A stretch of DNA of 64,000 nt, taken from the NCBI GenBank assembly GCA_963681965.1, contig OY820579.1, positions 3,104,001 through 3,168,000 on the forward strand. Reading direction: 5' to 3'. A program made the translations under genes and the position numbers. Below, piece after piece: positions 3,684 through 49,702 of the stretch. The notes below the pieces were generated by a model. That model worked only from the letters and a program-made list of their open reading frames with translations, was not told the DNA's origin and searched no databases. This stretch comes from a bacterium (lineage in GTDB: Bacteria > Electryoneota > JAOADG01). The number at the start of each line of letters is the position of its first letter. Position 1 is the first letter of the stretch.

Positions 3684-6032
3684 ATGAATAATAGCATTCG
3701 ACACATCTATAAAATCACTGGTTTCGTCCAAGGGGTTGGCTTTCGCCCCTTCATATATCGTATTGCCCACGAATGCGGTATCAGTGGCTTTGTGCGGAAT
3801 CTCTCCTGGGGTGTCGAAATCGAAGCGCAAGGGGATCCTGAGCAGATAACGTCATTTGAAGTAAAACTTCGATCGGAACTACCACCACTTGCCGAAATTC
3901 ATTCGCTGGAAATAATCGAAATGCCTTTGCTCGATGATTCTCTAGATCATAAATTTTTCATAATTGAAAGTGGCACGAGTACCGCCGAAGCTGCCCTGAT
4001 CAGTCCCGATGTCGCCACTTGTACCGATTGTTTGCGCGAGCTAAACGACCCATCTGATCGTCGTTACCATTACCCCTTCATCAACTGTACGAACTGCGGA
4101 CCCCGTTTCACCATCATTGAGGAAGTACCATATGATCGGGCTAAAACGACGATGCATTGCTTTCCGCTCTGTTCCGATTGCGAACGCGAATACCGCGATC
4201 CCGTCAATCGCCGCTTCCATGCCGAACCGGTCGCATGCCCCGTCTGCGGACCGCATCTTGCATTCGTCGATGGTTCGCAACCGATACCCGCTGAAAATGT
4301 GTTCGGTCAAGATGAAGCGCAATTACAATTAACGATCGGTTCGCTCAAAGCCGGAAAAATAGTCGCAGTGAAAGGCTTGGGGGGATTTCATCTTGTCTGC
4401 GATGCGACAAATGAACCAGCCGTTTTTCGTCTCCGTCAGCGCAAACATCGACCCGATAAACCGCTGGCAATCATGGTTCCAGATCTTGATCAGGTGAGAC
4501 AATTCTGTTTCGTCTCTGAATCGGAAGCAAATGAACTGAAAAGTTTTCGCCAACCGATCCTGTTACTGAAACGTCGAGCAAGTGATGTGCAAGCGAAGAT
4601 ATCTCAACTTGCCGACTCTATTGCGCCCAATCTCAATGAAGTCGGCGTAATGCTCCCTTACACTCCGCTACACCATCTGTTATTCCAACTTGGACAGTTC
4701 CCGGCACTGGTCATGACCAGCGGCAATCGATCCGAAGAACCGATCGTCATCGATAACGATGAAGCAATCCAAAAATTATCGGATATTGCCGACGATTTCT
4801 TGTTACACAATCGTGTCATCTGGAATCGCTGTGACGATTCGGTTGGATACTTTCGCGACCAAACCCCGGTACTGACCCGACGCGCGCGGGGCTTCGCGCC
4901 TCGTCCGGTACCGTTACTCCACGACGCTCCGCCGACTTTGGCAGTCGGTGCGATGTACTGCAATGTCTTCGCACTTGCCGAAAATCGGCGAACATTTTTA
5001 TCGCAACACATCGGCGATGTCGACTCCACCAAAACACTAGATTTCCTGGCTGAATCGGTCGACAAACTGAAACGGTGGTTGCAAATCGATCCTGAGTTGA
5101 TCGTTCACGATCTTCATCCGGATTTGCTCACAACCCGCTATGCGCAACAGGTTGCCGATGGAAAACAATTGTTCCCGGTTCAGCATCATCAAGCTCATTT
5201 CGCTTCAGCACTAACTGCGAATGGTATTGCCGAACCTACTGTCGGGATTGTATTCGATGGCACTGGTTTCGGAACTGATCGGACTATTTGGGGTGGCGAA
5301 TTCTTTGTAGGATCCATTCGGCAAGTGGAGCGAGTCGGTCACCTCCTCCCCTTACCGCTTCCGGGTGGCGACGCTGCTATTCGACGACCGGCTCGGGTAG
5401 CGATCGCTTATATACACACACTACTGCCGGATTACTCCATCGCCCCATTAGCACTCTGGAATAATGTAGATAATGACGTGATCACTGTCGTTCGACAAAT
5501 GGTTGATCAGCGATTCAATACAATCCCAACTTCAAGTATCGGGCGCTTATTTGACGCTGTATCGGCATTACTAAGTGTGCGATTCGAAGTATCTTACGAA
5601 GGACAAGCCGCCATCGAGCTGGAAAGTCTGGCAGAACGCTCCTCAACCGATATTTCCAAACTAGCAGACTACAAGTTACATTTTGCTATTGAGAAGCGCG
5701 ACAACCAATGGATCATTCAACCCAAACCGATGCTGGAGGGATTGATCAATGCGCTGATTGCCGGTCAATCGCGAGCCGATTTAGCGTATCACTTTCATCA
5801 TTCGCTTGCAGAAGTTTCGGCTGATATATCTGAACATATCGCACAGCATCACAGACTGAAGAAAATCGTGTTATGCGGCGGTGTTTTCCAGAATCGATTG
5901 TTGACTCGATTGACCGCATCGAACCTTCGTGCAAGGGGTCTAGAACCCGTTCTGCCGGGAATTATTCCGGTGAATGACGGTGGCATAGCATTAGGGCAAG
6001 TCGCCGTCGCAGCGGCAAATAGAAAGCAGTAG
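3684..6032 (+). CDS. hypF: Carbamoyltransferase HypF
   Basis: Acylphosphatase GFVQGVGFRPF, two Zn fingers (CTDC/CTNCGPR, CSDC/CPVCGP), KGLGGFHL, QHHQAH, DGTGFG, NDGGIALGQ. Confidence 0.97.
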   Translation: MNNSIRHIYKITGFVQGVGFRPFIYRIAHECGISGFVRNLSWGVEIEAQGDPEQITSFEVKLRSELPPLAEIHSLEIIEMPLLDDSLDHKFFIIESGTSTAEAALISPDVATCTDCLRELNDPSDRRYHYPFINCTNCGPRFTIIEEVPYDRAKTTMHCFPLCSDCEREYRDPVNRRFHAEPVACPVCGPHLAFVDGSQPIPAENVFGQDEAQLQLTIGSLKAGKIVAVKGLGGFHLVCDATNEPAVFRLRQRKHRPDKPLAIMVPDLDQVRQFCFVSESEANELKSFRQPILLLKRRASDVQAKISQLADSIAPNLNEVGVMLPYTPLHHLLFQLGQFPALVMTSGNRSEEPIVIDNDEAIQKLSDIADDFLLHNRVIWNRCDDSVGYFRDQTPVLTRRARGFAPRPVPLLHDAPPTLAVGAMYCNVFALAENRRTFLSQHIGDVDSTKTLDFLAESVDKLKRWLQIDPELIVHDLHPDLLTTRYAQQVADGKQLFPVQHHQAHFASALTANGIAEPTVGIVFDGTGFGTDRTIWGGEFFVGSIRQVERVGHLLPLPLPGGDAAIRRPARVAIAYIHTLLPDYSIAPLALWNNVDNDVITVVRQMVDQRFNTIPTSSIGRLFDAVSALLSVRFEVSYEGQAAIELESLAERSSTDISKLADYKLHFAIEKRDNQWIIQPKPMLEGLINALIAGQSRADLAYHFHHSLAEVSADISEHIAQHHRLKKIVLCGGVFQNRLLTRLTASNLRARGLEPVLPGIIPVNDGGIALGQVAVAAANRKQ

Positions 6033-6041
6033 GAATTCAAA

Positions 6042-6287
6042 ATGTGTTTAGCAGTACCGGGACTCATTAAACAAATCGACCACGGAATGGCAATCGTCGA
6101 TTTCGGCGGCGTTGCCCGTCAAATCGCATTGGATCTTCTTCCCGAAGCAAAACCGGGTGAATACATCCTTGCCCATGCCGGATTTGCCCTCCAGATCATC
6201 GATGAAAAAGAGGCACTCGAGTTATTCGATCTCTTCCGTGAATTGGACGAAAAAATCGCCAGCGATTCGGAGCAGTCGGAGCAATGA
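6042..6287 (+). CDS. hypC: Hydrogenase chaperone HypC
   Basis: MCLAVPG N-terminus, HAGFA. Confidence 0.97.
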   Translation: MCLAVPGLIKQIDHGMAIVDFGGVARQIALDLLPEAKPGEYILAHAGFALQIIDEKEALELFDLFRELDEKIASDSEQSEQ

Positions 6288-7363
6288 GTACCGAGCATAA
6301 TCATTCAGTCTCCGATCAATATTTCAATCAAATCGCGAAACTTGTTACACATCCCATCAATCTGATGGAAGTCTGCGGTACCCATACTGTTGCAATCAGC
6401 CGGTTTGGCATCCGTTCACGCTTACCACGCGATCTGCGCTTGCTATCCGGTCCCGGGTGTCCTGTCTGTGTCACCCCCACTGCCATTATCGATACAATCA
6501 TCGAATTATCGCGCCTTCCCGATGTTATCATCGCCACTTTCGGTGACATGCTCCGAGTACCGGGAACAGCTTCTTCGCTGCAGCAGGAACGTGCCAGTGG
6601 AAAATCGATCAAGATTATTTATTCACCGCTGGAAGCGATCGAACTAGCCCAGCAACAACCATCCAAAACGATCGTTTTGGTTGCAGTAGGATTTGAAACG
6701 ACACTACCGGTACTAGCCGCAACGATGATTCGTGCCAAAGAAATGAAATTGGAAAATTTCTTTGCGATACCATCCGGGCGTCTTGCACCTCCGGCAATGG
6801 CTGCACTCCTTCAATCGAACGATGTCAAGATCGATGGTTTCATTTGTCCCGGTCATGTTAGCACCATCATCGGCAGCGCCCCATATCTTCCATTGGCGCG
6901 AGATTATCATGTACCCTGCGTCGTTACCGGTTTTGAAGCCAACGATATTCTTCAGGGCGTAGTGCAATTACTGGAACAGATCGCCGACAATCGTACCGAA
7001 GTCGAGATTCAATACAAACGTGCTGTTTCCGATTCCGGCAATAAAATTGCGCAAGATGCGATCGCTCGCGTCTTCCAAATCGTCGATGCGGAATGGCGCG
7101 GAATTGGTGTAATTCCTCTTTCTGGAATGGAATTCAACGAAGAATTTCACTATTTCGATGCTCGACAGCGCTTCTCAATCACAACTTCGACAACATCAGC
7201 CATGCCAGCCGGATGCCGCTGTGGCGAAATAATGCGGGGAATGAAATTGCCGCCGGAATGCGAGCTATTCGGTCGGAGCTGTACCCCTCAACACGCGGTC
7301 GGTCCCTGCATGGTATCAAGTGAAGGGTGTTGTGCCGCTTACTATCGGTACGGTAGTACATAG
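6284..7363 (+). CDS. hypD: Hydrogenase formation protein HypD
   Basis: MEVCGTHT, GPGCPVCVT, GFETT, PGHVS, GPCMVSSEGCCAAYY. Confidence 0.97.
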   Translation: MSTEHNHSVSDQYFNQIAKLVTHPINLMEVCGTHTVAISRFGIRSRLPRDLRLLSGPGCPVCVTPTAIIDTIIELSRLPDVIIATFGDMLRVPGTASSLQQERASGKSIKIIYSPLEAIELAQQQPSKTIVLVAVGFETTLPVLAATMIRAKEMKLENFFAIPSGRLAPPAMAALLQSNDVKIDGFICPGHVSTIIGSAPYLPLARDYHVPCVVTGFEANDILQGVVQLLEQIADNRTEVEIQYKRAVSDSGNKIAQDAIARVFQIVDAEWRGIGVIPLSGMEFNEEFHYFDARQRFSITTSTTSAMPAGCRCGEIMRGMKLPPECELFGRSCTPQHAVGPCMVSSEGCCAAYYRYGST

Positions 7364-11743: not shown

Positions 11744-12562
11744 TTATTTTATTCCTAAATCACGATGTTGTAACGCCCATAACGTAGTGAACCAGCCAAA
11801 TGTCGATACCAGCGATAAAATGATCAATCCCGTCCAATTCCAACCATCGGTTGGAAACAAGGTTCGCGGTTCGACCCAGTGCCACAACGAAAATATAATA
11901 TAGGGCTTTAATAGCTTTATGCTTCTACAGATTACTTCCCACAAAATCATTATTAAAACAAAACCGACGATACCTCCCAGAGCAATTCGAAAGCGACCCC
12001 AAATCGCCGCTAACATAGCCCCGAGACTTCCAATCGCGATCGACCATAATATTTGCATCCCCAGCGCTGCGAACAACATCGGAACGCGAACATTCGATAA
12101 TTCCGTGAAATGCAATGTAGCAATCCACCATGTAAATGTTCCGATAAGCTCGATAATCAGAAAACCGGTCAGTTGCGCGAGAATGATCGCTGCTAACCAC
12201 GTCTGCCGGCTGATCGGTCGCGAAAAAACAACGTCTAGCACTCCCCGCTCCTGATCCGATGCAATGTGCCGTAGCGGGAGTTGGATCGCCCAGAAAAGCA
12301 ACGTGACAGTGAATAACGGGTGAGCAAGCGATAACAACAGTGAACCGGTTGGATCCAGTAACATCGGTACATCGGACGAAACCGAAGCTTGAAATTGCGC
12401 GGGCAACATCTTCATCAATTTTACCAATCCCTCGCGAAGGGCTGTCTGTGCAGTCATCCAAGCAAATAGCCAGTTAGCCAACCCAATCCATAGCGAAAGT
12501 AGTAGTAAAACGATCCGATGACGGCGATAGAAATACCGGATGACAATGAGAAATTGTTTCAT
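11744..12562 (-). CDS. ABC-2 type exporter permease
   Basis: About six hydrophobic segments, DQERGVLDVVFSRPISR motif, coupled to the ATPase gene. Confidence 0.85.
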   Translation of the reverse strand: MKQFLIVIRYFYRRHRIVLLLLSLWIGLANWLFAWMTAQTALREGLVKLMKMLPAQFQASVSSDVPMLLDPTGSLLLSLAHPLFTVTLLFWAIQLPLRHIASDQERGVLDVVFSRPISRQTWLAAIILAQLTGFLIIELIGTFTWWIATLHFTELSNVRVPMLFAALGMQILWSIAIGSLGAMLAAIWGRFRIALGGIVGFVLIMILWEVICRSIKLLKPYIIFSLWHWVEPRTLFPTDGWNWTGLIILSLVSTFGWFTTLWALQHRDLGIK

Positions 12563-13260
12563 TTCATTGCCACCATTTCGAAAAAGATCTCTTCGATTTC
12601 AGTTGTCGACGAATAATCCGAACGCTTCAGTATACCGGCTAACTCACCATTGTTAAACACCGCGATCCGATCTGCAAGTTCGTAGGCTTCGCGAAGATCG
12701 TGCGTCGATAGTAAAAGCGTCGTATTGTTCGATCGGAGTTTGAGCAGATTCAGTAAACTTCGCTGTTGGATCGGATCGAGACCATCACTTGGTTCGTCTA
12801 GTATGATTAGATCGGGACGATGCTCCAGTGTGGCAACCAATCCCAATTTCCGTTTCATGCCTTGCGAAAGTGTGCCGGTATAGGAGGTAAGACGATCCTG
12901 CGGAAAATTCAATTGATCTAATAATTCAAGCCGGTAGCTGGGATCCGGTCGACCAGACAGTTCTGCAAGAAATGTCAACCACTCTCCACATTTCACTCCT
13001 AATGGCCACCCCATTTCGCCCGGTAAGTATCCCACTCTCGCACGGGAAGCATTTGATGACGGTTCTCGATCGAAGATGGTAATCGTACCGGAAGTCGGAG
13101 AGATGAGACCGAGCAAGAGGCGAATCGCAGTGGATTTACCCGCGCCATTGGGTCCTAGAAACACCAGACATTCGCCGGAACAACCTTGCAACGTTAATGA
13201 ATTTAACGCTGTAAACGAACCATACTGCTTCGTTACGTTCACATATTCAAATGGTGTCAT
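12559..13260 (-). CDS. ABC transporter ATP-binding protein
   Basis: GPNGAGKS, LSQGM, ILDEP, STH. Confidence 0.95.
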   Translation of the reverse strand: MTPFEYVNVTKQYGSFTALNSLTLQGCSGECLVFLGPNGAGKSTAIRLLLGLISPTSGTITIFDREPSSNASRARVGYLPGEMGWPLGVKCGEWLTFLAELSGRPDPSYRLELLDQLNFPQDRLTSYTGTLSQGMKRKLGLVATLEHRPDLIILDEPSDGLDPIQQRSLLNLLKLRSNNTTLLLSTHDLREAYELADRIAVFNNGELAGILKRSDYSSTTEIEEIFFEMVAMK

Positions 13261-13287
13261 TAAAATGTTCCGGTAGATCGTATATCG

Positions 13288-14340
13288 TTATTGCGCTTGA
13301 ATAAACGAACTGACCAGCCTGAAGGTCGCATCCAATGCATCGATATGAGTCCGCTCGTAGCCGTGCGAAGCGGCTACACCGGGACCGATCAATGCGACTT
13401 TCACGTCTTTTCCAGCGCGTAGTGCCGCCGAGCCGTCGGAACCATAAAACGGGAAAACATCGGTTTTGTACGGAATTTTATTTTTCTCGGCAATTTCGAT
13501 CAACTGCTGAGTCAATTCGTAATGATATGGACCCGAGGAATCTTTAACACAGATCGACACGCTGTATTCATCGCCTGCGACGCCATCTCCTACGACACCC
13601 ATATCGACAATAATGAGGGCGTCAAGATTCTCCGGTAGCCCGGCAAGACCCTGCCCGGTTTCTTCGGTTATGTTAAAGAGGATGTAAATCTCCTGAACTT
13701 CTTTCAACAATCCCGATTTCGGATCGAGTAATTGATCCGATAACGCCAGCAATACTGCGGCGGACGCTTTGTCATCCAGAAATCGTGAGTTGATATATTC
13801 GTTGTCGAATCGGAAACCGGGATCCAGTGTGACATAACTCCCGATCGGAATCAATTTATCCAACTTTTCCTTTTCGCGAATCCGCTTATCAATCCGAACG
13901 TGTAGATCGTCGAATTTTATTCGCTCTTCTTCCCATTTCTTCGAAACATGAGTGGATGGATTATCTGGTAGGATTGTTCCGGAATACTTCGTGCTATCGA
14001 AAGCGTGTATCGTACAATGATCGCCGATTACATTGAATGCCGGAAGGCTTCCGACCGGTGCGATTTTAATTTTCTCGCCAGTCACACTCCGAACCATCGC
14101 CCCGAGTGTATCGACGTGCGCCGCAAAGGCGAGTACTTTCCCTGCCTCATTCTCGCCTTCGAACGAAAATCGCACTGCCCCTTTTCGGGTTGTCGTGACC
14201 TGAATGTTTTTCGATCGTGCCTGTTCGACCAGAAAATCCTGAACATATCTGGTAAATCCTGTCGGAGAGGGGATCCTAACCAATTTCTCGAAATAGGAAA
14301 CAATGGTTTTGGGATCGATTTTGAGGGTGGATGATTGCAT
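13288..14340 (-). CDS. M42 family metallopeptidase (YhfE-like)
   Basis: PSPTG, AHVDTLG, FLDDK, TEETG, VDMG, SHGYE metal ligands. Confidence 0.9.
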   Translation of the reverse strand: MQSSTLKIDPKTIVSYFEKLVRIPSPTGFTRYVQDFLVEQARSKNIQVTTTRKGAVRFSFEGENEAGKVLAFAAHVDTLGAMVRSVTGEKIKIAPVGSLPAFNVIGDHCTIHAFDSTKYSGTILPDNPSTHVSKKWEEERIKFDDLHVRIDKRIREKEKLDKLIPIGSYVTLDPGFRFDNEYINSRFLDDKASAAVLLALSDQLLDPKSGLLKEVQEIYILFNITEETGQGLAGLPENLDALIIVDMGVVGDGVAGDEYSVSICVKDSSGPYHYELTQQLIEIAEKNKIPYKTDVFPFYGSDGSAALRAGKDVKVALIGPGVAASHGYERTHIDALDATFRLVSSFIQAQ

Positions 14341-14470
14341 GGATAAGTCCTTCCTGCCTAAGTCAGACTAATTTCATAACCATTTAATATATCCCGCTAA
14401 TAAAACAGGAAGCAAGGGGAAAAGATAGTTCTACGATATTCATGCATTGTCATTGGTATAAGTAATACAT

Positions 14471-14497
14471 AAAAGGGAGGGCTTCCGCGCCCTCCCT
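14471..14497 (-). terminator. Intrinsic terminator downstream of gatD
   Basis: 9-bp stem AGGGAGGGC/GCCCTCCCT followed by T tract on the minus strand. Confidence 0.75.
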
Positions 14498-14531
14498 AAC
14501 TTATCACCACGAACTATGAACCAAGCACCTA

Positions 14532-15920
14532 TTACTTCCGAACCTTCGAGATAAATTCCTCGACTTCGGGAATACCGCCTTGCATGATCAGATAACCGTT
14601 GCTGGGTTCGCGATCAGTGATTTCACCATTGATCGGAGTATACATGATTTTCCGGACTTCAGCCAAATCTTCCGTTTGACCAAGTGCCCACCCCAACTTC
14701 ACATAAGCGACTTCGGGAAGCATATTCGCCATTGGTACGACTCCCAGTTCCATCATGTCCCGACCGGTATCGTACACATACATCTGGACATAGCCCCAGA
14801 GTGTTTGAACCGTCATGTAGACCGCGATGTTCTTCTCTTTGGCACGTTTCAATGCCGGATACAGCGGTTTATTGACATGACCCAATCCGGTACCTGCAAT
14901 AATAATACCCCGATAGCCATTATCGATCATGGAATCGATCATATCCGGTTTCATGTTCGGGTAGTAGTAAACGATTCCGACCGCTTCTTCGAAGGCGGTA
15001 TTGATCGTCACTTCACGGTCGTAACGCCGTTTCTTGTAATCGGTACGAAGTGGTGTAATTTTACTTCGACTTACCATAGCAATCGGAATATCGCCGATCG
15101 TGCGGAACGTCGAACGGTAACTCGAGTGCATCTTACGTACCCTTGTACCGCGATGCAGTAAACCATATTCGTCGGAAGTAGGACCGAACATACAGACCAT
15201 CACTTCGGCGATATCGCCTTCGGCAGCGGCTTTGACACTGTGCATCAAATTCAATGCCGCATCGGAAGAGGGACGATCGCTGGAACGTTGCGAACCGACC
15301 ATCACAATTGGAATCGGCGAATTCTGAACCATGAACGAGAGAATCGCCGCAGTATGATGCATCGTATCGGTACCATGTCCGATCACAATACCCTGTACGC
15401 CCTTGGCAATCTCCCTACCGATCGCTTCGGCAGTACCACGCCACTGTTCCGGACCCATATTTTCACTGAATACACCGTACAGTTTTTCAGTCTCCAGATT
15501 GCAGATGTCTGCCAATTCCGGTACTGATCCATACAATTCACCCGGGGAAAAAGCGGGAATTACCGCTCCGGTACGATAGTCCAACCGACTCGCAATCGTA
15601 CCACCGGTTCCTAACAATTTTACCTTCGGTCTTCGAGGATCGAACGGAAAATCTTTTTCGGGAATTTTGTAGTGTGCTTCTTTGCGTCCGATAATATTCA
15701 CTCCGCGGACATTTTCGGCATTCACTCCGATATTGTAACCCGAACGCAACTTCATCACGATATGTAACGGATCGGCAGTTTCCGATCGCGGTAAAATAAT
15801 ACCGGTAAATACGCCGGTATCGGTCTTCAATTCGATATCGCTCCAGACTTTCGCATCGAATTTTTGAAGCGTTGCTAGTGCTTCGCCGCGATACCCTTTA
15901 TAGTCGTCATTCGCCGTCAT
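14532..15920 (-). CDS. gatD: Glu-tRNA(Gln) amidotransferase subunit D (archaeal type)
   Basis: GatD-specific N-domain GIILPR...HIVMKLRSGYNIG; TGGTIASRLDYRTGAV, HGTDTM, SQRSSDRPSSD, HRGTRVRKMH, GTGLGH. Confidence 0.93.
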   Translation of the reverse strand: MTANDDYKGYRGEALATLQKFDAKVWSDIELKTDTGVFTGIILPRSETADPLHIVMKLRSGYNIGVNAENVRGVNIIGRKEAHYKIPEKDFPFDPRRPKVKLLGTGGTIASRLDYRTGAVIPAFSPGELYGSVPELADICNLETEKLYGVFSENMGPEQWRGTAEAIGREIAKGVQGIVIGHGTDTMHHTAAILSFMVQNSPIPIVMVGSQRSSDRPSSDAALNLMHSVKAAAEGDIAEVMVCMFGPTSDEYGLLHRGTRVRKMHSSYRSTFRTIGDIPIAMVSRSKITPLRTDYKKRRYDREVTINTAFEEAVGIVYYYPNMKPDMIDSMIDNGYRGIIIAGTGLGHVNKPLYPALKRAKEKNIAVYMTVQTLWGYVQMYVYDTGRDMMELGVVPMANMLPEVAYVKLGWALGQTEDLAEVRKIMYTPINGEITDREPSNGYLIMQGGIPEVEEFISKVRK

Positions 15921-17896
15921 GCTTGCTTCTCCTGCAACGCGCTATTCAATCTGCTGGCAACCAGTTTGCCTTCTACCCGTCCGCGAACTTTTTTCATGAC
16001 CATCCGCATCGCCGTCCGGAACTTTTGATCGAATTGCGGGATTGGTTTGTGCGTCACTTCAACTGCTGCAACTTTTACAACCGTATCGAATTCTCCGGCA
16101 GTACAGATCGGCGGTAAAGCCTCGATGCAGAATTGCCCCGAAATCGCCGTACGTTCCATCGCTTCGTAAATACCTTCTTTGGCGATTCGACCGTTCTTGT
16201 ACGCAAAGAAAATCTGCTCAATCACTTCGGGGGTAATAGCAGAAATCGAAATACGCTTTCTGCGAATTCGCTTCGGGAATTGAATCAACGCGACAGCAAC
16301 TGTTGTCGGATTTAATTTCCACTCATCGACCAATTTGTCGAACAATGGTGCATACTTCGATAGCGCTAGCGGTTGAACGCAGTCTTCGGGAATTTTGTGC
16401 TCACGATACTTGCGCTCGCGAATCCAATAATACTCCGGTAATCCTTTTTGAATGCGCTCTCTGCGCTCGGTTGTAATGCGCTTCGGTGGAAGATCGGTAT
16501 CCGGATACATGCGATCGGCACCGGGAAGAATTCGTTCGAAACCATTCGTTCCGTCACTGAGTGCCTGACGAGTTTCGGAGGGAATACCGATCGTTGCTTC
16601 GCGTGCGCGGATGATAATCTCTTTGGTTGCAGTCTCGACATCGACGAGATCGCCCCAAACCAATACAACAGTATCGTTTTCGGTTGCACCGGACGCCTTC
16701 TTCACGGCTGCCCATTCGGCAGACGATAACGTATCGTTCGGACTATCCGAGTGCAGAATGTTTGGGAGTACAGTCATACAGGCAATCACGCGAATCCGGT
16801 CTGATATCTCGCGCGAGAAATAGGTATCCGTCTGGGTTTGCCAACGGAGCAGCCCCTTGAAGCCAACGAGATTTACACAGCGGACAGTCTTACCGAGTCC
16901 GATTGCATCCCGAACCGGCTGGAACCGCGTCTTACGGAGAATCTTGGTGACATCTTCAATTCGAGATTTGAAATTTTCCGGTGTCACACCACGGCGATGG
17001 AGTTCAGCGCGTAAACGTAACAGATTCCATTGCCGCATTGCTTCGTTGTATGTCAACAATGGAATATTCGGTATCCGTGGCACACCCTTGATTTCGATTC
17101 GGGTACCGCCCTGAACACTGACATTGACATCCTGCCGTGCTGCACCGATACCGGTACGTACTTTTCCAGTGCTTCGCACCATGCGTCGCAAAATATCGCA
17201 CACTTCCGCAACTTCGATCGGGGTTTTCATCGATGGTGCAGTCACTGTTTCGATCAATGGCATACCCAATCGATCGGTCAAATAGACACGTCGGTGACCG
17301 ACATCGCTGAATTCCCGACAGGCGTCTTCTTCCAGACCCAACTGAACGATCGGAATCTCGCGATCTTTGTACGGAATATTCCCATTGACACCGACGATCG
17401 TCGTTCGTTGAAAGCCAGTGGGAATACTACCATCGAGATATTGTTTACGTGCAATGTGAATTTCATCGACCAGCGACATACCGTACAGCAATCCGATTTC
17501 CAGAGCGATGTCCAACGCTTCGTCGTTTAGTTCGAACGGTGGCGTATCGTCCATCTCGTAGGTACAGACTGTTTCGCGGTTGATGTGGTAGATGATCTCT
17601 TTTTTCGTTTTGAATTCCATCAATGCCGTACCGTCGTATTCGCCCAATTCGGACAACGTCGGTCGCATGTGTCGAAGAATTTCGGCATGGAACACATCGC
17701 TATACCGACCTGCGGGACAGCGGCAAAACAGCTTGCGTTCGGTATAAACTTGTTGGTGAATTTCCAATCCCGATTTGAATCCGACATAATCATAGTCGGA
17801 GTTCGTCATCTCGGAAAAGGGTTTGAATAGAAAAGCTTGAAGCTTCTGATCAAGCTCCTGATCGGTTTCGATTGCGTTTTGATTCGCAGAATCCAT
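15917..17896 (-). CDS. gatE: Glu-tRNA(Gln) amidotransferase subunit E (archaeal type)
   Basis: GLEIHQQ..KLFCRCP, RPTLSELGEYD, DGSIPTGFQRT, LEEDA, DRLGMPLIE, RQDVNVS, AspRS-like insertion, PSETR...LPGADRMYPDTD. Confidence 0.93.
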   Translation of the reverse strand: MDSANQNAIETDQELDQKLQAFLFKPFSEMTNSDYDYVGFKSGLEIHQQVYTERKLFCRCPAGRYSDVFHAEILRHMRPTLSELGEYDGTALMEFKTKKEIIYHINRETVCTYEMDDTPPFELNDEALDIALEIGLLYGMSLVDEIHIARKQYLDGSIPTGFQRTTIVGVNGNIPYKDREIPIVQLGLEEDACREFSDVGHRRVYLTDRLGMPLIETVTAPSMKTPIEVAEVCDILRRMVRSTGKVRTGIGAARQDVNVSVQGGTRIEIKGVPRIPNIPLLTYNEAMRQWNLLRLRAELHRRGVTPENFKSRIEDVTKILRKTRFQPVRDAIGLGKTVRCVNLVGFKGLLRWQTQTDTYFSREISDRIRVIACMTVLPNILHSDSPNDTLSSAEWAAVKKASGATENDTVVLVWGDLVDVETATKEIIIRAREATIGIPSETRQALSDGTNGFERILPGADRMYPDTDLPPKRITTERRERIQKGLPEYYWIRERKYREHKIPEDCVQPLALSKYAPLFDKLVDEWKLNPTTVAVALIQFPKRIRRKRISISAITPEVIEQIFFAYKNGRIAKEGIYEAMERTAISGQFCIEALPPICTAGEFDTVVKVAAVEVTHKPIPQFDQKFRTAMRMVMKKVRGRVEGKLVASRLNSALQEKQA

Positions 17897-18139
17897 AACA
17901 TCGCTCCATCTGGCGGGGATCGCGCGGAATATACATAGAATGAAAAAACAATATAAGCGATTCTAATGGATTTGAGAAAAAACGCCTCTATTTACAAAGC
18001 CTAAAGTTTCGCTTTTCATGCAACTAACTTCGTAAATCCGCAAAAAAGAATTGGTAAAGCTTAGAGAGACGGTTATATTATTGGTTTATTCACGAAAACT
18101 CTCAATTAATCGAACGATTCTCGCGATTCTGGATCTTTC

Positions 18140-19024
18140 ATGGAAATATTCGACCACTGTTTACTTTGTCAATCGGATAGAATCGTTACAATCGATGAAG
18201 ATTGTAATATTATCCGATGCAAAACTTGTGGCTTTGTTTTCCATTCTCCGCGTCCAACAGCAACTGAACTCGCACAATTCTATTCCACACCTGCACAATC
18301 CCATGATTGGCTTTCAAACGAACAAGTCCGCGACGAAATGTGGCTCCGAAGACTTCGTAAAGTACACAACTATCGGACCGAAGGATCGTTATTGGATGTT
18401 AGTACTGGGATCGGACAATTTCTTCATTTTGCTCGGAATATGTTTTTTCCGGTGACTGGTTCAGAGGTTTCCGACAGTGCGATTCGGATTGCCCGGCAGA
18501 AATATGAATTGACGTTAGAGAAAGGCACAATCAATTCCATCGATTGGAAGAACCGAAAATTCGATGTTATTACCCTATTCCATGTGCTAAATCACGAACT
18601 TGATCCGCTGGAGTTGATATTCTCTTGTAAGAAGTTGTTAAAGCCGTCCGGACTGCTGATAATCACTGTTCCGAACGATCTATCGGCGTTCAGTGCAAAA
18701 CTGAGTTCGATTTTTAAAACAATTGGAATCGGAAAATTGGTGAAGACAGAGGTAGGATTGCATAAAATCGATCTCGAAAACCCAGTTTCGAAAATTCAAT
18801 TGTCGTACTTCAATTCCAAAGTCTTGCAGATCTGTCTGCAACGATGTGGTTTTAAAATTATTGAAACCGATCTCGACCCGTATTACATCGCATCCGGATT
18901 TGATCGAGTGATGTATTCCGCTAATTACGGTTTGAGTCGAATCGTGAAAAAAGTATTCCGCACCAATATTTACGATACAATTTGGCTCGCAGCCGAATTA
19001 CCCCCGAATTCTCCACACGAATAA
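18140..19024 (+). CDS. Class I SAM-dependent methyltransferase with N-terminal CxxC/CxxC (glycan-associated type)
   Basis: CLLC...CKTC, LLDVSTGIG, FDVITLFHVLNH, LKPSG. Confidence 0.8.
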   Translation: MEIFDHCLLCQSDRIVTIDEDCNIIRCKTCGFVFHSPRPTATELAQFYSTPAQSHDWLSNEQVRDEMWLRRLRKVHNYRTEGSLLDVSTGIGQFLHFARNMFFPVTGSEVSDSAIRIARQKYELTLEKGTINSIDWKNRKFDVITLFHVLNHELDPLELIFSCKKLLKPSGLLIITVPNDLSAFSAKLSSIFKTIGIGKLVKTEVGLHKIDLENPVSKIQLSYFNSKVLQICLQRCGFKIIETDLDPYYIASGFDRVMYSANYGLSRIVKKVFRTNIYDTIWLAAELPPNSPHE

Positions 19025-19045
19025 CGCATTTCTAAGAATCGCAAA

Positions 19046-19948
19046 TCACGGTTTTTGCTTACAGCCAAACATGATGCTGAGGATTTGCAATGCAGCAGTA
19101 AATCTTCGCTGAACGATTCGCTTAAAAAGACTGTAGATCATCATCAAATACACAGTCGGTAGAAAATACCAATAGTGTTTTCTGGTTAAATAAATCCGAT
19201 TTCTGAACGTATAGAAATCGGAAAACAGCGTTTTTTTTCCAGCGCGATCGTTGGTTCCGATACTCGCACCCTGTTTATGGTACACAATACTTTTTTTGGC
19301 ATAAGATAGGTTAAAATGTTGTTTCTTAGCTCGGATCCCCCAATCAATCTCTTCCATGTACAAAAAAAGAAATTCATCCATCAATCCAACCGTCTGTAAG
19401 AATTCTTTCGATGCTAACACCGAAGCGCCGCAGATCAGATCTAGCTGCTTGTTTCGTATATTTGTATCTACCTTGTTGCGCGCTAATCCTTCACCGTAAA
19501 AACCGGATAATCCTGTCGCAGGCTGGTACCAACCGCCACCTAACGCCTGTACCCGATGTCGATCGTCTTCATACAAAATCGTCGATCCACACAACCCCGT
19601 CGTCGGATCATTCTTCATCGTATCGACTAAACTGGTCAATGCCTTCGGATCGACCCGCGTATCGTTATTGAGGATCCATACGTAGTCACAATCGGATTGA
19701 GCAAGTGCATGTCGGATCCCGACGTTATTTCCGCCGGCATAACCGAGATTCTCGCCTGTGAATAACAGGTCAAATCGTTTGTTACAAAACTCCGATAATT
19801 TGACCTGTGACTCGTCCGTCGAACCATTATCGACAACGATTACACGGTAGGAAGGATAGGACAATTGAAAGATGCTTTCGAGACACTGGATTGTTTCCTG
19901 CCACCCGTTCCAATTCAGGATGACGATATCGACGGTAGGTTGTTTCAT
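19046..19948 (-). CDS. GT2 family glycosyltransferase
   Basis: VILNWNG, VDNGSTD, NLGYAGGNN, LNND, FLYMEEID. Confidence 0.92.
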   Translation of the reverse strand: MKQPTVDIVILNWNGWQETIQCLESIFQLSYPSYRVIVVDNGSTDESQVKLSEFCNKRFDLLFTGENLGYAGGNNVGIRHALAQSDCDYVWILNNDTRVDPKALTSLVDTMKNDPTTGLCGSTILYEDDRHRVQALGGGWYQPATGLSGFYGEGLARNKVDTNIRNKQLDLICGASVLASKEFLQTVGLMDEFLFLYMEEIDWGIRAKKQHFNLSYAKKSIVYHKQGASIGTNDRAGKKTLFSDFYTFRNRIYLTRKHYWYFLPTVYLMMIYSLFKRIVQRRFTAALQILSIMFGCKQKP

Positions 19949-27912: not shown

Positions 27913-29340
27913 TCAATCGGGAATTGGCATCAATTTGTATTTCTCGACCAATTTCTGTAACTCCGGATACTCGGCAATCATCGCTGCCAATCGTTGATCC
28001 AGCGTGCCGGAAGGTCGAATTTCGTCTTCTTGATTGTGAGTAGTTGGCGCAACCGATCGCGGTCGAGCATGACGATTGGGGTCAATCGTCGGTCGACTTG
28101 GAGTTGGCGGTGTTTCAGTCGAGGTTTCGATCTTAGGTTTAGGGATTACGCGAGATTGAGCGACAACCGGTTCAACGATTAGAGTTTTTTTTTCCTCGCT
28201 GACACTCGCAATGCCACTTTCCAACGATTTTAGTAACGTTGCCAGATCGACTGTTCGATCGAGACGCGTTAATCGTTGCAATAGCATTTCGACGCGAAGT
28301 CGGGGATTGTAACTACCGCGCAGGGAAGTCTCGGTTTCGGCAGTCAATTTCAACATTCGCAACAAATCGTTTTCGTCGAAGAGTGGCGCTTCAGTTTCGT
28401 ATAATCGCCGCTCTTCAGGTGTGAGAGCCAATCCATTGGCAGTCTTGAGCACATTCACCCGTAAAAGTAGTAAAAGATGCTCCATCAGACCGCGAATGAA
28501 ATCCGACAAATCGGCGCCGGTATTCATTAATGCTGCTACAAACCCAAAAGTCTCCGCAGTCTCATTCATTCGAACCATGCGCGTAATATCGAAGAATCGG
28601 TCGCTTCTGATCAATCCCAGTGCAGTGATCACTTCACTTTCAGTGACATTCGTTCCGCAAAACGCAATCATTTGATCAAGTAGCGACAATCCATCGCGTA
28701 ACGATCCATCGCTGCGTCGTGCAAGGATCGCTGCCGCTCCCGGTTCCAACTCAAGCCCTTCTTTCGCAGCCAATGCGGTAAGATGTCCCGCGACTTCGGC
28801 GGCATCCAACCGACGAAATTCGAAGCGTTGGCATCGTGAGAGTACAGTTGGTGGAACTTGATGAACGTCGGTGGTGGCAAGAATGAATACTGCATGTTCC
28901 GGAGGTTCTTCCAATGTCTTCAAGAATGCGTTGAATGCTTCCTTGGTGAACATGTGGACTTCGTCAACGATGACGACCCGTCGACGACCGGTTGATGGGG
29001 CGAACCGGATGTTATCCCGTAAACTGCGGACATCTTCGACACCGCGATTGGATGCCGCATCGATTTCCAATACGTCTAGACTACGCCCTTCAGTAATCTG
29101 AACACAGCTTTCGCATTCGCCGCACGGTTCGGTAGTATCACCGTTTTTACAATTCAATGCTTTGGCAAGAATTCGGGCGACGGTTGTCTTTCCCACTCCG
29201 CGGGGACCACCAAACAGGTAAGCGTGAGCGATCCGTTTTTGTGAAATAGCGCGTGTGAGTGTTCCGGTAACGTGTTCTTGTCCAATCACTTCATCGAAGC
29301 GTTGGGGGCGATAACGGCGAGCTAAGACGATATAGGACAC
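27913..29340 (-). CDS. dnaX: DNA polymerase III subunit tau/gamma
   Basis: LARRYRP, GPRGVGKTT, Zn module, EIDAASN, DEVHM, LKTLEEPP, SRC; GTG start at 29340 with GGAG RBS. Confidence 0.96.
   Translation of the reverse strand: MSYIVLARRYRPQRFDEVIGQEHVTGTLTRAISQKRIAHAYLFGGPRGVGKTTVARILAKALNCKNGDTTEPCGECESCVQITEGRSLDVLEIDAASNRGVEDVRSLRDNIRFAPSTGRRRVVIVDEVHMFTKEAFNAFLKTLEEPPEHAVFILATTDVHQVPPTVLSRCQRFEFRRLDAAEVAGHLTALAAKEGLELEPGAAAILARRSDGSLRDGLSLLDQMIAFCGTNVTESEVITALGLIRSDRFFDITRMVRMNETAETFGFVAALMNTGADLSDFIRGLMEHLLLLLRVNVLKTANGLALTPEERRLYETEAPLFDENDLLRMLKLTAETETSLRGSYNPRLRVEMLLQRLTRLDRTVDLATLLKSLESGIASVSEEKKTLIVEPVVAQSRVIPKPKIETSTETPPTPSRPTIDPNRHARPRSVAPTTHNQEDEIRPSGTLDQRLAAMIAEYPELQKLVEKYKLMPIPD
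28185..28193 (-). other. A9 slippage/frameshift site in dnaX
   Basis: GAG GAA AAA AAA ACT; both shifted frames stop within 1-3 codons. Confidence 0.7.
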
Positions 29341-29360
29341 GAATACTCCGGATAACGAGA

Positions 29361-29479
29361 ACCGACCCGGTGGGTTCGGCGACCCGCGGCACAGGGATTC
29401 AGGCGGACCGTTGCTCCCTTCCGGGCCTAGCGGGGTTGAGCCGTCGCACCTTGCGCGGGACCGGACCCAGCGGGTCGGC
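29361..29479 (-). ncRNA. ffs: Signal recognition particle RNA
   Basis: AACCCCGCTAGGCCCGGAAGGGAGCAACGG helix-8 motif, GCGCAA/GTGCCGC flanks, closing stem GCCGACCCG/CGGGTCGGT; located upstream of dnaX. Confidence 0.9.
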
Positions 29480-29574
29480 AGTCGATCATCATGCGGAGAA
29501 TCACCGCACGAAGTGCAGGAAAGTTGCGATAAAAACGCGCAATTTCCAAATCTGAAACACAAAACTACTGAGAG

Positions 29575-33370: not shown

Positions 33371-36300
33371 ATGCAACTCCGAACGCGCTCAGTGAATACG
33401 GATCCCTTCGATCGATCGATCCGGGATCATTCATTGACCTTTGGAAAATCCGGTAGCTGTGATTTCGGCACCGTGGGACGGTTTCTGATCGCAGCTCTGT
33501 TGGCGTTGTTGAGTACAGTTTCGATAGCATCGACCAATTCTGTCGATGAGATCAATACTGTTCTATTCAGCACCGGATTTGAAAGCACCTTTCCCCCTCC
33601 CGGCTGGGTGATCGGCGACGGTGGTGTACCGAATAACACCGGCTATCATTGGGGTCTAAATACCGTAAATGCGCAAACTGGAACCTATAGCGCATTCTGT
33701 GCGAGCAACGACGATACCGGCGCTTGGACTTACTTGCACAGTATGCGCAAAGTACTGCAAACACCGACCTTCGATCTTTCCGCCGCAGTGGCATCGATGT
33801 TGCATTTCTCCGTCTGGATGAATACCGAAGCTGATAACGATCAACTCATTGTTGCGATCCGCGATCCTCGCGGAATATGGCAGAATTTGCGGATATTAAG
33901 CGGTTCGGCACAGTCGTGGCAAACCTTCGATGTTTCATTGTGGAATTACATCGGTCAAAATGGTGTGGCGATTCAATTTGTGTTCACTTCCAACGGGAGT
34001 ACAATCCCTACCGGTAATGCCGGTGTCTGGTTGGACAATGTTTCGCTTGAAGCCAACCTCGCTACAGTTGGTGTGACACTTACCAACCCGACCGGTGGTG
34101 AAAACTGGGGCGTTGGGTCGAGACAGGAAATTACCTGGTACGCTAACGGATTCGGTGCCAATGACAATATGAATGTCGAAATCAATCGTGAATATTCCGG
34201 CGGCACTTGGACGTTACTCGGTACGGTTCCGAATTCCGGTTCTTTTCCTTGGACAGTCACCAACCCGATTGGATCGACCAATCGCATCAAAGTCTATCCG
34301 CAAAGCAATGCATCGATCTATGGAATGTCGACGAGCAACTTTACCATTTCCGGCGGTGTGACTCCAGTTATTCAAGTCACTACCCCGGCTGGAGGCGAAC
34401 ATTGGTATACCGGCGAGCAACATACGATCCAATGGACATCGACCAACTTAACCGATAATGTTCAAATCGATCTGAAAGCCGATACGACAACAACAGTTCA
34501 TATCACGAATTCGACACCTAATTCCGGTTCTTACACTTGGTCGATACCGACTGGACTAGTAGCTAGCACTGCTTATCGGATTTACATCAGTAACGCCACC
34601 TCCCCGGTTACCGCTGATGATTACAGCAGTTACTTCTCAATTGCTGCCGGACAGGTGAATTACACAATTTCCGGGTATGTACGCGATTCGCAATCGAATG
34701 GTATCAGCGGTGTTTCGATTTCCGGTATGACGAATACCGTGACCACAGATCAGAACGGATACTATTCAGGATCGGTCTCCTCCGACTGGTCGGGTACATT
34801 AACACCGTCGCTTACCGGATATACTTTCTCGCCGCAAACGATTACTCTATCCCACGTCACATCCAATCAGACATCGCAGAATTTTACTGCAACACCAACA
34901 GGATCTTCAATAACTATTTCGGGATATGTTCGAAATTCGGCTTCGAATGCGATTAGTGGTGTAACAATCTCCGGACTACCGGGTATCGTCCAGACTGATA
35001 ACAACGGTTTCTATAGTGCCACCGTCTCAAGCGGGTGGTCAGGTACGGTCACACCATCACTATCCGGATGGACATTCGCCCCGACGAATCGAACCTATAA
35101 CGGTATAACGGTATCGCAGTCAAGCCAAAACTACACTGCGACTCAAGTATCGATCACGTATTTTATCAGTGGGTATGTTCGCGATACCAATTCACAGCCG
35201 ATTGCGAATGTCGTGATGTCAGGCTTCCCAAACTACGTTACAACTGATGCCAATGGATTTTATCAAACTTTCATGGCGACCGGTTGGAGCGGAACAGTAA
35301 CACCGCAGTTAACCGGTTACTCATTTGTCCCGGACCATTACACCTACACCGCTTTAACAGGTAATCTATCGGGTCAAAATTACACTGGAACGCTTGCGAC
35401 TTCGGTAATAATCTCCGGGTACATCCGCAATTCCTCGTCGAATCCAATCAGTGGTGTGACGCTTTCGGGTCTGCCCGGAACAATTCAATCGGATAATGAT
35501 GGATTTTATAGCGCAACGGTCTCGAGTGGATGGTCGGGAACAGTCACACCGACGCTGTCCGGATGGTCCTTCGCACCCACTAACCGTACCTATAGCAGTG
35601 TAACGACATCGCAATTCAATCAGAATTTCACTGCCACGCAAGTATCCATCACATATTTTATTAGTGGTCATGTCCGAAACAGTAGTTCTCAACCCATCGC
35701 GAACGTCGTGATGTCCGGTTTTCCGAGTTACGTTGCCACCGATACCGCCGGTTTTTATCAAACGTTCTTAGCAATGGGCTGGAGTGGTACGGTAACACCA
35801 CAACTGACCGGTTATACTTTTTCACCCGATCATATCACGTTCTCGGCGTTGACTGGTAACCAGACTGCCCAGAATTTCACCGCGACGCTCAGCACCACCG
35901 CAATCATTTCCGGAATCATTCGCGATCAAAATTTAATTCCCATTGCCGGCGTAGCCATGGCAGGATTCCCCGGATCCATTGTTACCAATGCATCGGGAGT
36001 ATATACCGTCACCCTTAGTCGGGGATGGTCGGGAACTGTTACTCCGCAATTAGTCGGTTGGAATTTCACTCCGTCGGGTCGAACCTATTTCAATGTCTCT
36101 GGATCGCAAACCACCGAAAATTATTCCGGGACGCCAAACGGACTAGCTTTTACGATCTCCGGTTTTATCCGCGATGTAAATTCGGTGCCCATCTCCGGTG
36201 TTGCGATGACCGGTTTTCCATCGACCATCCTTAGCGATACTTCCGGATACTATATCGGCACAGTACCGCGAAATTGGTCGGGTGCGATTTCACCACAAGC

Positions 36301-48014: not shown

Positions 48015-48015
48015 C

Positions 48016-49569: not shown

Positions 49570-49702
49570 AGCGTAGTGCTTCCTTTCTGACTACCTAATT
49601 CAGGATCGATAACAAATCAAATCAATGCGGATAATCGGCATCAGTTGAGCCAATCTCAATCGCCGGAAATAAGCGATTAGATCCGATCAAGCGAAAAAAT
49701 TA

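Follow-up and report, generated by a model that had tools for sequence, protein, structure and literature searches.

The two-subunit amidotransferase GatDE is stated to occur in archaea only (PMC2811023, PMC2330236, PMC8007984 and PMC9499178, with reviews reaching to 2022), and Sheppard and Soll, as cited in PMC9499178, inferred its presence in LUCA, life's last universal common ancestor. In Methanothermobacter thermautotrophicus (Mth), GatE binds magnesium through His15, Glu157 and Glu184, and the active site of GatD has a Thr nucleophile and a Thr-Lys-Asp triad (PMC2330236), while a GXXAXGX motif in the tail of GatE has been tied to the discrimination between Gln and Asn tRNAs (PMC2811023). 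The second system to be compared is bacterial: Bdellovibrio, which has a glutaminyl-tRNA synthetase (GlnRS), an asparaginyl-tRNA synthetase (AsnRS), one aspartyl-tRNA synthetase (AspRS) and neither of the asparagine synthetases AsnA and AsnB, makes asparagine with the amidotransferase GatCAB (PMC4206432). Here we describe an intact gatE-gatD operon in a bacterium of the phylum Electryoneota, found in a stretch of 64,000 nucleotides (assembly GCA_963681965.1, contig OY820579.1, positions 3,104,001 to 3,168,000) that we call the window. A first reading of this stretch by a model that saw only the letters and their open reading frames (ORFs), the original prediction in what follows, had already recognised the operon and had called GatDE archaea-specific, in agreement with the four papers. 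The operon belongs to a distinct bacterial GatDE clade that has long been kept in this phylum and in neighbouring phyla of the Fibrobacterota-Chlorobiota-Bacteroidota (FCB) group, and we propose, with a probability of about 0.5, that bacterial GatDE is an accessory amidotransferase repurposed for tRNA-dependent asparagine synthesis, which would have Asp-tRNA(Asn) as its substrate and possibly a dual specificity.

The window lies in a genome (G000) that consists of one contig of 4,244,867 bases, is 99.91% complete and has 47 tRNA genes; a gene for tRNA-SeC (selenocysteine) is present. The operon is read from the - strand, and coordinates are positions in the window unless a genome handle precedes them.

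15917..17896, - strand: gatE, 659 amino acids, with cradle domain, AspRS-like insertion and YqeY-like tail; the tRNA-dependent kinase/transamidase subunit
14532..15920, - strand: gatD, 462 amino acids, the asparaginase-type amidase subunit with the GatD-specific N-terminal domain
15917..15920, - strand: ATGA in which the stop of gatE overlaps with the start of gatD (...GCA TGA over ATG ACG, from the sequence)
G000 C1:2815965-2817401: the genome's own gatB, whose product is a paralogue with kinase/transamidase cradle and YqeY-like tail

Both products score well above the cut-offs of the equivalog models for their subunits: GatD reaches 512.5 bits on NF003217 (cut-off 310) and 505 on TIGR02153 (324), and GatE reaches 541.6 bits on NF003107 (456) and 482.3 on TIGR00134 (319.55) and falls, with 112.8 bits, under the 314.8 cut-off of the gatB model TIGR00133. 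When the gatE model was run on 14 genomes as a control, the cut-off was passed in the four archaea only. GatD contains the Pfam domains GatD_N (PF18195, 49 bits vs 25.7), Asparaginase and Asparaginase_C, and in its alignment with the Pyrococcus abyssi subunit (1zq1_A, 400.9 bits) the segments GTGGTIAS, HGTDTM, SQRSSDRPSSDA and RKMH are aligned and conserved (GTGGT at residues 104-108). GatE aligns over its full length with the enzymes of P. abyssi (1zq1_C, 355 bits) and M. thermautotrophicus (2d6f_C, 325 bits) and carries EIHQQ at 45-49, RPTLSELGE at 78-86, LEED at 188-191, PLIE at 213-216 and RQD at 254-256. The magnesium ligands of the Mth enzyme correspond to H47, E189 and E216, as mapped by motif and by the 2d6f offset (query residue 34 = chain residue 2), and all three are invariant in an alignment of 30 GatE sequences. 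The GatB_N match of GatE is stretched over residues 42-477, that is, 436 residues for 272 profile positions, and the gatE model is covered without a break from 3 to 621 by the window GatE and at 94-278 and 420-620 only by the GatB of the same genome, so the insertion that sets GatE apart from GatB is real. The original prediction had read the overlap, the N-domain and glutaminase residues GGT, GTDT and RKMH of GatD, the five GatE motifs and this AspRS-like insertion from the letters, and it was right in each. The overlap implies translational coupling, as far as the sequence tells, and the operon encodes a genuine and intact GatDE, predicted to be a functional tRNA-dependent amidotransferase of the GatD2E2 type.

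That gatDE might instead not be a working pair, being an assembly artefact, a contamination or the decaying relic of a recent transfer, is extremely improbable. A 35,208-base contig in each of two runs from two studies spans positions 12500-19500 and crosses both flanks with zero differences (either may be the source of the assembly), both ORFs are intact and free of stops, the identity to bacterial homologues is 63-71%, and GatE is found in 45 genomes of the phylum besides this one; the single-contig genome, the spanning contigs and these relatives together exclude the chimera that the original prediction had named as a way in which it might fail. The only feature found in the direction of such a reading is a slight rise in guanine-cytosine content, which at 0.48-0.49 in the operon is a little above that of the next 6 kb (0.42-0.45) and inside the range of the window. 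The surroundings are bacterial, as originally noticed: dnaX lies at 27913-29562 and a bacterial small signal recognition particle RNA at 29370-29467, and elsewhere the genome has gatA, gatB and bacterial-type glutamyl-tRNA synthetases (GluRS).

The operon is far from isolated. Our sample of the phylum comprised 79 species genomes from nine families, the first 41 scored in detail and the other 38 used as replication, and GatE is present in 46 of the 79 (in 43 over the cut-off and in three as fragments at contig ends). Among the first 41 genomes GatD passes its cut-off in 30; 29 have both subunits, one has GatE alone (a genome 79% complete) and one GatD alone. The two genes adjoin each other in the window and in some relatives and are unlinked in others (at 2.77 vs 4.24 Mb in G015, at 2.13 vs 3.44 Mb in G028), and the fact that both subunits are kept even where they are unlinked argues for a working heterodimer and, with the high model scores and the conserved catalytic residues, for genes under selection. 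Across 17 loci no conserved neighbour genes were found beyond gatD and asnA. A search with GatE of 5.8 billion proteins gave at least 8000 matches, the best 120 of which are 63-71% identical, and some of these 120 are labelled at their source as GatE of Calditrichaeota, Bacteroidota, Ignavibacteriae, KSB1 or 'FCB group' bacteria. The GatE from one genome of the phylum nearly equals a protein that bears the NCBI label 'Calditrichaeota bacterium', which points to Calditrichota as the probable affiliation. Bacterial GatDE is thus a lineage trait shared with other phyla of the FCB group and not an isolated acquisition. The original prediction had allowed for annotations in other bacteria while knowing of no characterisation, and so it turned out: databases already annotate bacterial GatE, and the four papers cited at the start treat GatDE as archaeal. 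In the library of papers searched we found no report of a bacterial GatDE, and Table S1 of PMC4206432 might already list GatDE-bearing genera (those with AsnRS, GlnRS and no AsnA/B). A member of the window's own genus (G001) has about 68% DNA identity and is too divergent and too fragmented for a clean deletion of gatDE to be judged. Separately, in four genomes of family f2 in which gatD is split from gatE (G004 C146, G009 C1, G035 C100, G039 C105), a class II synthetase gene, likely lysS and a weak match to the AspRS and AsnRS models, lies within about 2-3 kb of gatD.

Within the first 41 genomes, GatE, the GatB subunit of GatCAB and GlnRS are distributed as follows.

GatE and GatB: 12 of 41 genomes; GlnRS absent in 11, and G025 has all three
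GatE only: 18 of 41 genomes; GlnRS in all 18 (in G017 as a fragment only)
GatB only: 7 of 41 genomes; GlnRS absent in all 7
Neither GatE nor GatB: 4 of 41 genomes; GlnRS in all 4

None of the 41 lacks both GatB and GlnRS, and one has both together, so GatDE is never the sole route to Gln-tRNA(Gln). Since that product is always supplied otherwise, by a second GluRS (GluRS2) with GatCAB or by GlnRS, GatDE would be an accessory enzyme. The transfer of core translation machinery that the original prediction had seen in the operon does not fit this picture, in which GatCAB or GlnRS is always present too. An inventory of the relevant genes, which the original prediction had suggested, was run for the window's own genome and gave gatA adjoining gatB (544.6 and 530 bits), from which we call GatCAB, two bacterial-type GluRS, one AsnRS and one bacterial-type AspRS; GlnRS was not found there, the best match having 60 bits against a cut-off of 425.8.

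Whether a GluRS discriminates is determined by the residue known as Arg358 in the Thermus thermophilus enzyme (PMC2978374), whose column we placed in the GluRS alignment through the 1g59/1j09 chain. Arg stands there in 13 of 13 single GluRS of genomes with GatE and GlnRS, and it stands in both copies in three of the five two-copy genomes of that kind, so that 16 of the 18 have an Arg-type GluRS only; judged by this column, these 16 probably make no Glu-tRNA(Gln), so that the canonical substrate of GatDE would be absent from them. In the GatB genomes, all four examined have one non-Arg copy, and in the window's second GluRS the residue is Glu. The second GluRS goes with GatB and not with GatE, and for that reason we rejected it as a partner of GatDE. 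The GluRS paralogue that is non-Arg in G012 and G033 is non-Arg also in G021, which has no amidotransferase at all, and in G029. In family f5 a second GluRS paralogue (loci L115, L119, L121, L123, L125 and L127) shares the sequence 'HRLDELP' and has N, R, S, G, K and G at the Arg358 column.

These data bear on a serious rival, which we judge unlikely, both in general and for the organism of the window with its GatCAB: that GatDE is a canonical second Glu-tRNA(Gln) amidotransferase (Glu-AdT) adapted to a tRNA-Gln with U1-A72, acting beside GatCAB or as a back-up for GlnRS. Perhaps the labour is then split as in archaea, with GatDE for Gln and GatCAB for Asn. Glu-AdT is the family's only characterised activity (PMC2330236, PMC2811023), the window's genome is without GlnRS, its GluRS2-like enzyme has Glu at the Arg358 column, which means that Glu-tRNA(Gln) would be made in that organism, and two genomes with GlnRS (G012 and G033) carry a non-Arg second GluRS. 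Set against this are the 0 of 41 genomes in which GatDE is the sole route, the 16 of 18 genomes with GatE and GlnRS whose GluRS are all of the Arg358 type, and the second GluRS that tracks GatB; furthermore, a canonical role leaves three observations described below unexplained, namely the anti-association with AsnA, the insertions of asnA in the operon and the loss of the motif that excludes tRNA-Asn.

The tRNAs themselves are of bacterial type. Both tRNA-Gln genes of the window's genome have U1-A72 and G73, and the tRNA-Gln(UUG) of the relatives has U1-A72/G73 in 30 of 30 (the best 30 of the matching loci of the 41 genomes), whatever enzymes are present. No archaeal-type A1-U72 tRNA-Gln was found among the tRNA-Gln genes read, which disposes of the archaeal-like tRNA-Gln that the original prediction had offered as one way for the enzyme to work in a bacterium; the evidence favours its other option of an altered specificity or a new function. 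For the tRNA-Gln(CUG) at G000 C1:2010625-2010700, outside the window, ARAGORN gives an acceptor stem of eight pairs: one more U on the 5' side faces G73, and the 3' end is encoded as ...GCCCA. With seven pairs it becomes an ordinary U1-A72/G73 tRNA. The tRNA-Asn genes share the pattern, with U1-A72/G73 in nine of nine genes read (11 genomes including the window's, no match in G027 and G040), and since bacterial tRNA-Gln and tRNA-Asn have these elements in common, the enzyme may accept both. In four genomes of family f5 (G012 C71, G017 C52, G033 C1, G037 C173; loci L083, L084, L086, L091) a tRNA-Asn match lies about 5-6 kb from the unlinked gatD, which may be a single inherited arrangement; the copy near gatD in G037 is partial and lies where its contig ends, with the full gene located on a different one.

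The link to asparagine comes from the company that GatDE keeps. Of the 31 genomes that have GatD or GatE, 3 carry AsnA, and of the 10 that have neither, 8 do (Fisher p 6.6e-5); in the 38 further genomes the counts are 1 of 16 with GatE and 16 of 22 without (p 4.9e-5), and over all 79 genomes they are 4 of 46 and 24 of 33. The contrast recurs within families f1, f2, f5 and f6, and of the four same-genus pairs with GatE in one member only, three agree with it (g1, g30, g55). In three of the four genomes in which both occur, asnA lies between or beside gatE and gatD (G008, G018, G075), and the fourth (G004) is fragmented. Where AsnA and AsnB are both missing, which is the case in 12 genomes, GatD is present every time, GatE joins it in 11 and GatB is lacking in nine, while all 10 genomes without GatD and GatE carry AsnA or AsnB. 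Eight genomes (G009, G012, G017, G027, G033, G037, G039 and G040) combine GlnRS, AsnRS and GatDE with the absence of AsnA, AsnB and GatCAB, and each has one bacterial-type AspRS; G029 has GlnRS and AsnRS, no AsnA or AsnB, and GatD only. An archaeal-type, non-discriminating AspRS travelling with GatDE was considered as a candidate and rejected, as no archaeal-type AspRS passes the cut-off in any of the 41 genomes of the phylum, the window's included. In G007 (C9:58228-60400), which has no GatE, asnA stands directly beside an asparaginase-like gene with 138 bits on the gatD model, perhaps what is left of the gatD-asnA arrangement or something related to it.

The tRNA-recognition elements of GatE have changed as well. 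In place of GXXAXGX, the tail of the window GatE has FDQKFRT at residues 622-628, and the pattern G..A.[GS] is found in the tail as follows.

Bacterial clade: 0 of 41 ungapped rows
Bacterial sequences with a name: 0 of 9
Asgard-like rows: 5 of 7
Other rows (72, with gaps in 28): 20 of the 44 without gaps

The loop that faces the 1-72 pair, which we mapped through the GatB of the window's genome and which is to that extent a putative assignment, has Arg in 70 of the 72 rows of the remaining clade; the bacterial rows have Arg in 25 of 52 and Thr in 23 of 52, the window GatE being among those with Thr, and the Thr-Ile that comes next is replaced in the bacterial rows by Ala followed by Ala, Val or Thr. 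On these alignments the bacterial clade has lost the motif that keeps tRNA-Asn out, and its recognition elements are changed. The changes in the loop could, for their part, be an adaptation from A1-U72 to U1-A72, which would suit a canonical Glu-AdT.

From the presence, integrity and conservation of the two genes, their co-occurrence with others and their changed motifs we infer a substrate. The chemistry would, by homology, be the known one: with an acidic amino acid bound as an ester to tRNA, GatE would phosphorylate the carboxylate of its side chain, and GatD would hydrolyse Asn or Gln, the released ammonia amidating the activated intermediate. With Gln-tRNA(Gln) covered by GluRS2 and GatCAB or by GlnRS, GatDE would be accessory, Asp-tRNA(Asn) would be its most likely substrate, and this route to asparagine would be interchangeable with AsnA. 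In the organism of the window, with its GluRS2-like enzyme and GatCAB, GatDE may share in both the Gln and the Asn tasks.

Several points weigh against asparagine synthesis as the function. Archaeal GatDE is reported (PMC2330236, PMC2811023) not to convert Asp-tRNA(Asn). Related genomes count as independent in the Fisher tests, and two families weigh heavily in them, f3 (GatE in 15 of 16, no AsnA) and f9 (GatE in 0 of 6, five with AsnA); the fourth same-genus pair, g8, which includes a genome 65% complete, runs the opposite way. A position of asnA next to gatDE also fits Asn as the amide donor, and a lack of both AsnA and AsnB could mean no more than Asn auxotrophy in the genomes concerned. 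AsnB-family genes or AsnA are carried by 19 of the 31 genomes with GatD or GatE, so that GatDE is not generally the sole Asn route, and the window's own genome is without the Bdellovibrio-like signature, having GatCAB and an AsnB-like gene; the latter scores 362 bits on TIGR01536 and 239 against a cut-off of 499 on the E. coli-type model, and it neighbours glycosyltransferases. The second GluRS of G012 and G033 could make Glu-tRNA(Gln) in genomes that have GlnRS, and the tail motif of GatE sits in a variable and partly gapped part of the alignment.

It is also conceivable, and distinctly unlikely in our estimation, that GatDE has another new function, with a different aminoacyl-tRNA, a non-tRNA substrate or a regulatory or metabolic role tied to asparagine turnover; one example would be the hydrolysis of AsnA-made Asn coupled to some other amidation. 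In many genomes, the window's included, GatDE is on paper dispensable for Gln and for Asn, both published tRNA-recognition elements have diverged, and asnA is inside the operon in three genomes, all of which would suit such a role. Against it, the whole tRNA-binding architecture is retained, with an end-to-end alignment to the solved archaeal enzymes, the catalytic residues are invariant, there is no conserved new neighbour gene, and the active site of archaeal GatD is silent without a tRNA substrate (PMC2330236).

The origin of the bacterial clade was examined with FastTree and IQ-TREE 'quick' searches on GatE only. In the FastTree of 122 rows, rooted with GatB, the window GatE and all nine relatives fall in a clade of 43 rows with support 100, whose sister is a sequence from a cluster that holds a Heimdallarchaeota GatE (96), with Thor- and Odinarchaeota sequences coming next. 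A mixture-model IQ-TREE that covers 52 rows and has five GatB sequences as outgroups agrees with it (100, 96, 80), and in a tree without outgroup the bacterial clade stands next to the Heimdall sequence once more (split support 97). Labels are sparse, in that six of 30 looked-up representatives could be named and a label is missing from 32 of the 43 rows within the bacterial clade and from 74 of the 79 others; the labelled rows within are all bacterial (10 from the phylum, one CSSED10-310 bacterium and, in the 52-row tree, four named rows), and the labelled rows outside are archaeal in five of five cases. A tree constrained to archaeal monophyly is not rejected by the approximately unbiased (AU) test (p 0.752), and it is 21.8 log-likelihood units better than the quick free search. 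The description of the bacterial clade as nested within Asgard was dropped on these grounds. On these trees the attachment point of the bacterial clade is stable, and the root, hence the direction of the transfer, is not.

Granted the usual archaeal phylogeny, in which Asgard is not basal to all archaea, it is simpler to assume that a Heimdall-like archaeon passed the genes on long ago, and we consider this probable. Of the inter-domain transfer that the original prediction had proposed, the archaeal affinity stands, the nearest archaea being Asgard; the isolated event does not, with GatE in more than half of the 79 genomes, and the direction is left open by the AU test. The alternative that bacterial GatDE was not borrowed at all and descends from a lineage older than the split of the domains, kept in a few FCB phyla through re-tasking to Asn-tRNA(Asn), seems to us quite improbable. 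Within the bacterial clade, several genomes of the phylum have their GatE in another subclade, farther from the window GatE than rows labelled Bacteroidota, Ignavibacteriae and KSB1 are (path 0.53-0.58 for the latter), which suggests either that gatDE passed between FCB phyla or that there are two old lineages.

Signals at the two ends of the operon are as follows.

14474..14497, - strand: intrinsic-terminator-like hairpin 3' of gatD, 9 pairs (7 G-C), loop of 6
17950..17978, - strand: nearest sigma-70-like promoter match 5' of gatE, TTCTCA-17-TATATT, 9 of 12 matches; weak

The tail of the hairpin is T-rich (TTTATGTATT), and the hairpin lies about 35 nt beyond the gatD stop; it agrees with the terminator that the original prediction had assigned to the operon, as a consensus match only, the operon region having 6 terminator-like sites against 3.9 +/- 2.2 in shuffles. 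For sigma-70-like sites the count is 13 against 6.5 +/- 3.2, and the promoter types of this group may differ. Next after the terminator comes a gene for an M42-family peptidase (13288-14340, - strand; 263 bits to the osmoprotectant NAGGN-system peptidase model, below its cut-off of 398), followed by ATP-binding cassette (ABC) transporter genes; this neighbourhood is not kept in relatives. Elsewhere in the window, genes for hydrogenase maturation, hypF (808 bits) and hypD (449 bits), and for complex I, nuoL, nuoM and nuoN, lie at 3684-7363 (+ strand) and 46563-51850 (- strand), and an ORF of 1710 amino acids at 33371-38503 (+ strand), directly past tRNA-Leu(CAA), matches no NCBIfam family at E <= 1e-20.

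A large, old and conserved bacterial GatDE clade alters the view of this enzyme as an archaeal signature and the argument on the amidotransferases of LUCA, and it provides a natural experiment on one scaffold at work with U1-A72 tRNAs of bacterial type. If asparagine synthesis is indeed the function, this would be a third bacterial way to asparagine and the first GatDE acting as an Asp-tRNA(Asn) amidotransferase (Asp-AdT), and apparent Asn auxotrophs (with GlnRS and AsnRS, without AsnA/AsnB and GatCAB) may not be auxotrophs, which bears on the metabolic reconstruction of sediment-derived Calditrichota-like, Ignavibacteria and KSB1 genomes. Should the lineage prove older than the domains and re-tasked to Asn-tRNA(Asn), bacteria would have in it both their first GatDE lineage and the first Asp-AdT of the GatDE type.

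Compared with the archaeal enzymes of P. abyssi (1ZQ1) and of M. thermautotrophicus with tRNA-Gln (2D6F), the GatDE of the window is alike in its two subunits, domain order, coupled operon, magnesium ligands and asparaginase-type active site, and it aligns over the full length, with 355 and 401 bits to the P. abyssi subunits; it differs in its bacterial host with a U1-A72 tRNA-Gln, in never being the sole Glu-AdT, in the missing GXXAXGX and the altered loop facing the 1-72 pair, and in its separate clade (100% support). The genomic signature of the GatCAB route to asparagine in Thermus, Deinococcus and Bdellovibrio (PMC4206432), together with a tRNA-Asn with U1-A72, recurs in eight genomes of the phylum, the window's own not among them; the amidotransferase here would be GatDE, with an amidase of the asparaginase type and not of the amidase-signature type. 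The GatB of its own genome, finally, shares with GatE the paralogous cradle and the YqeY-like tail, but it lacks the insertion and has GatA as its adjacent partner.

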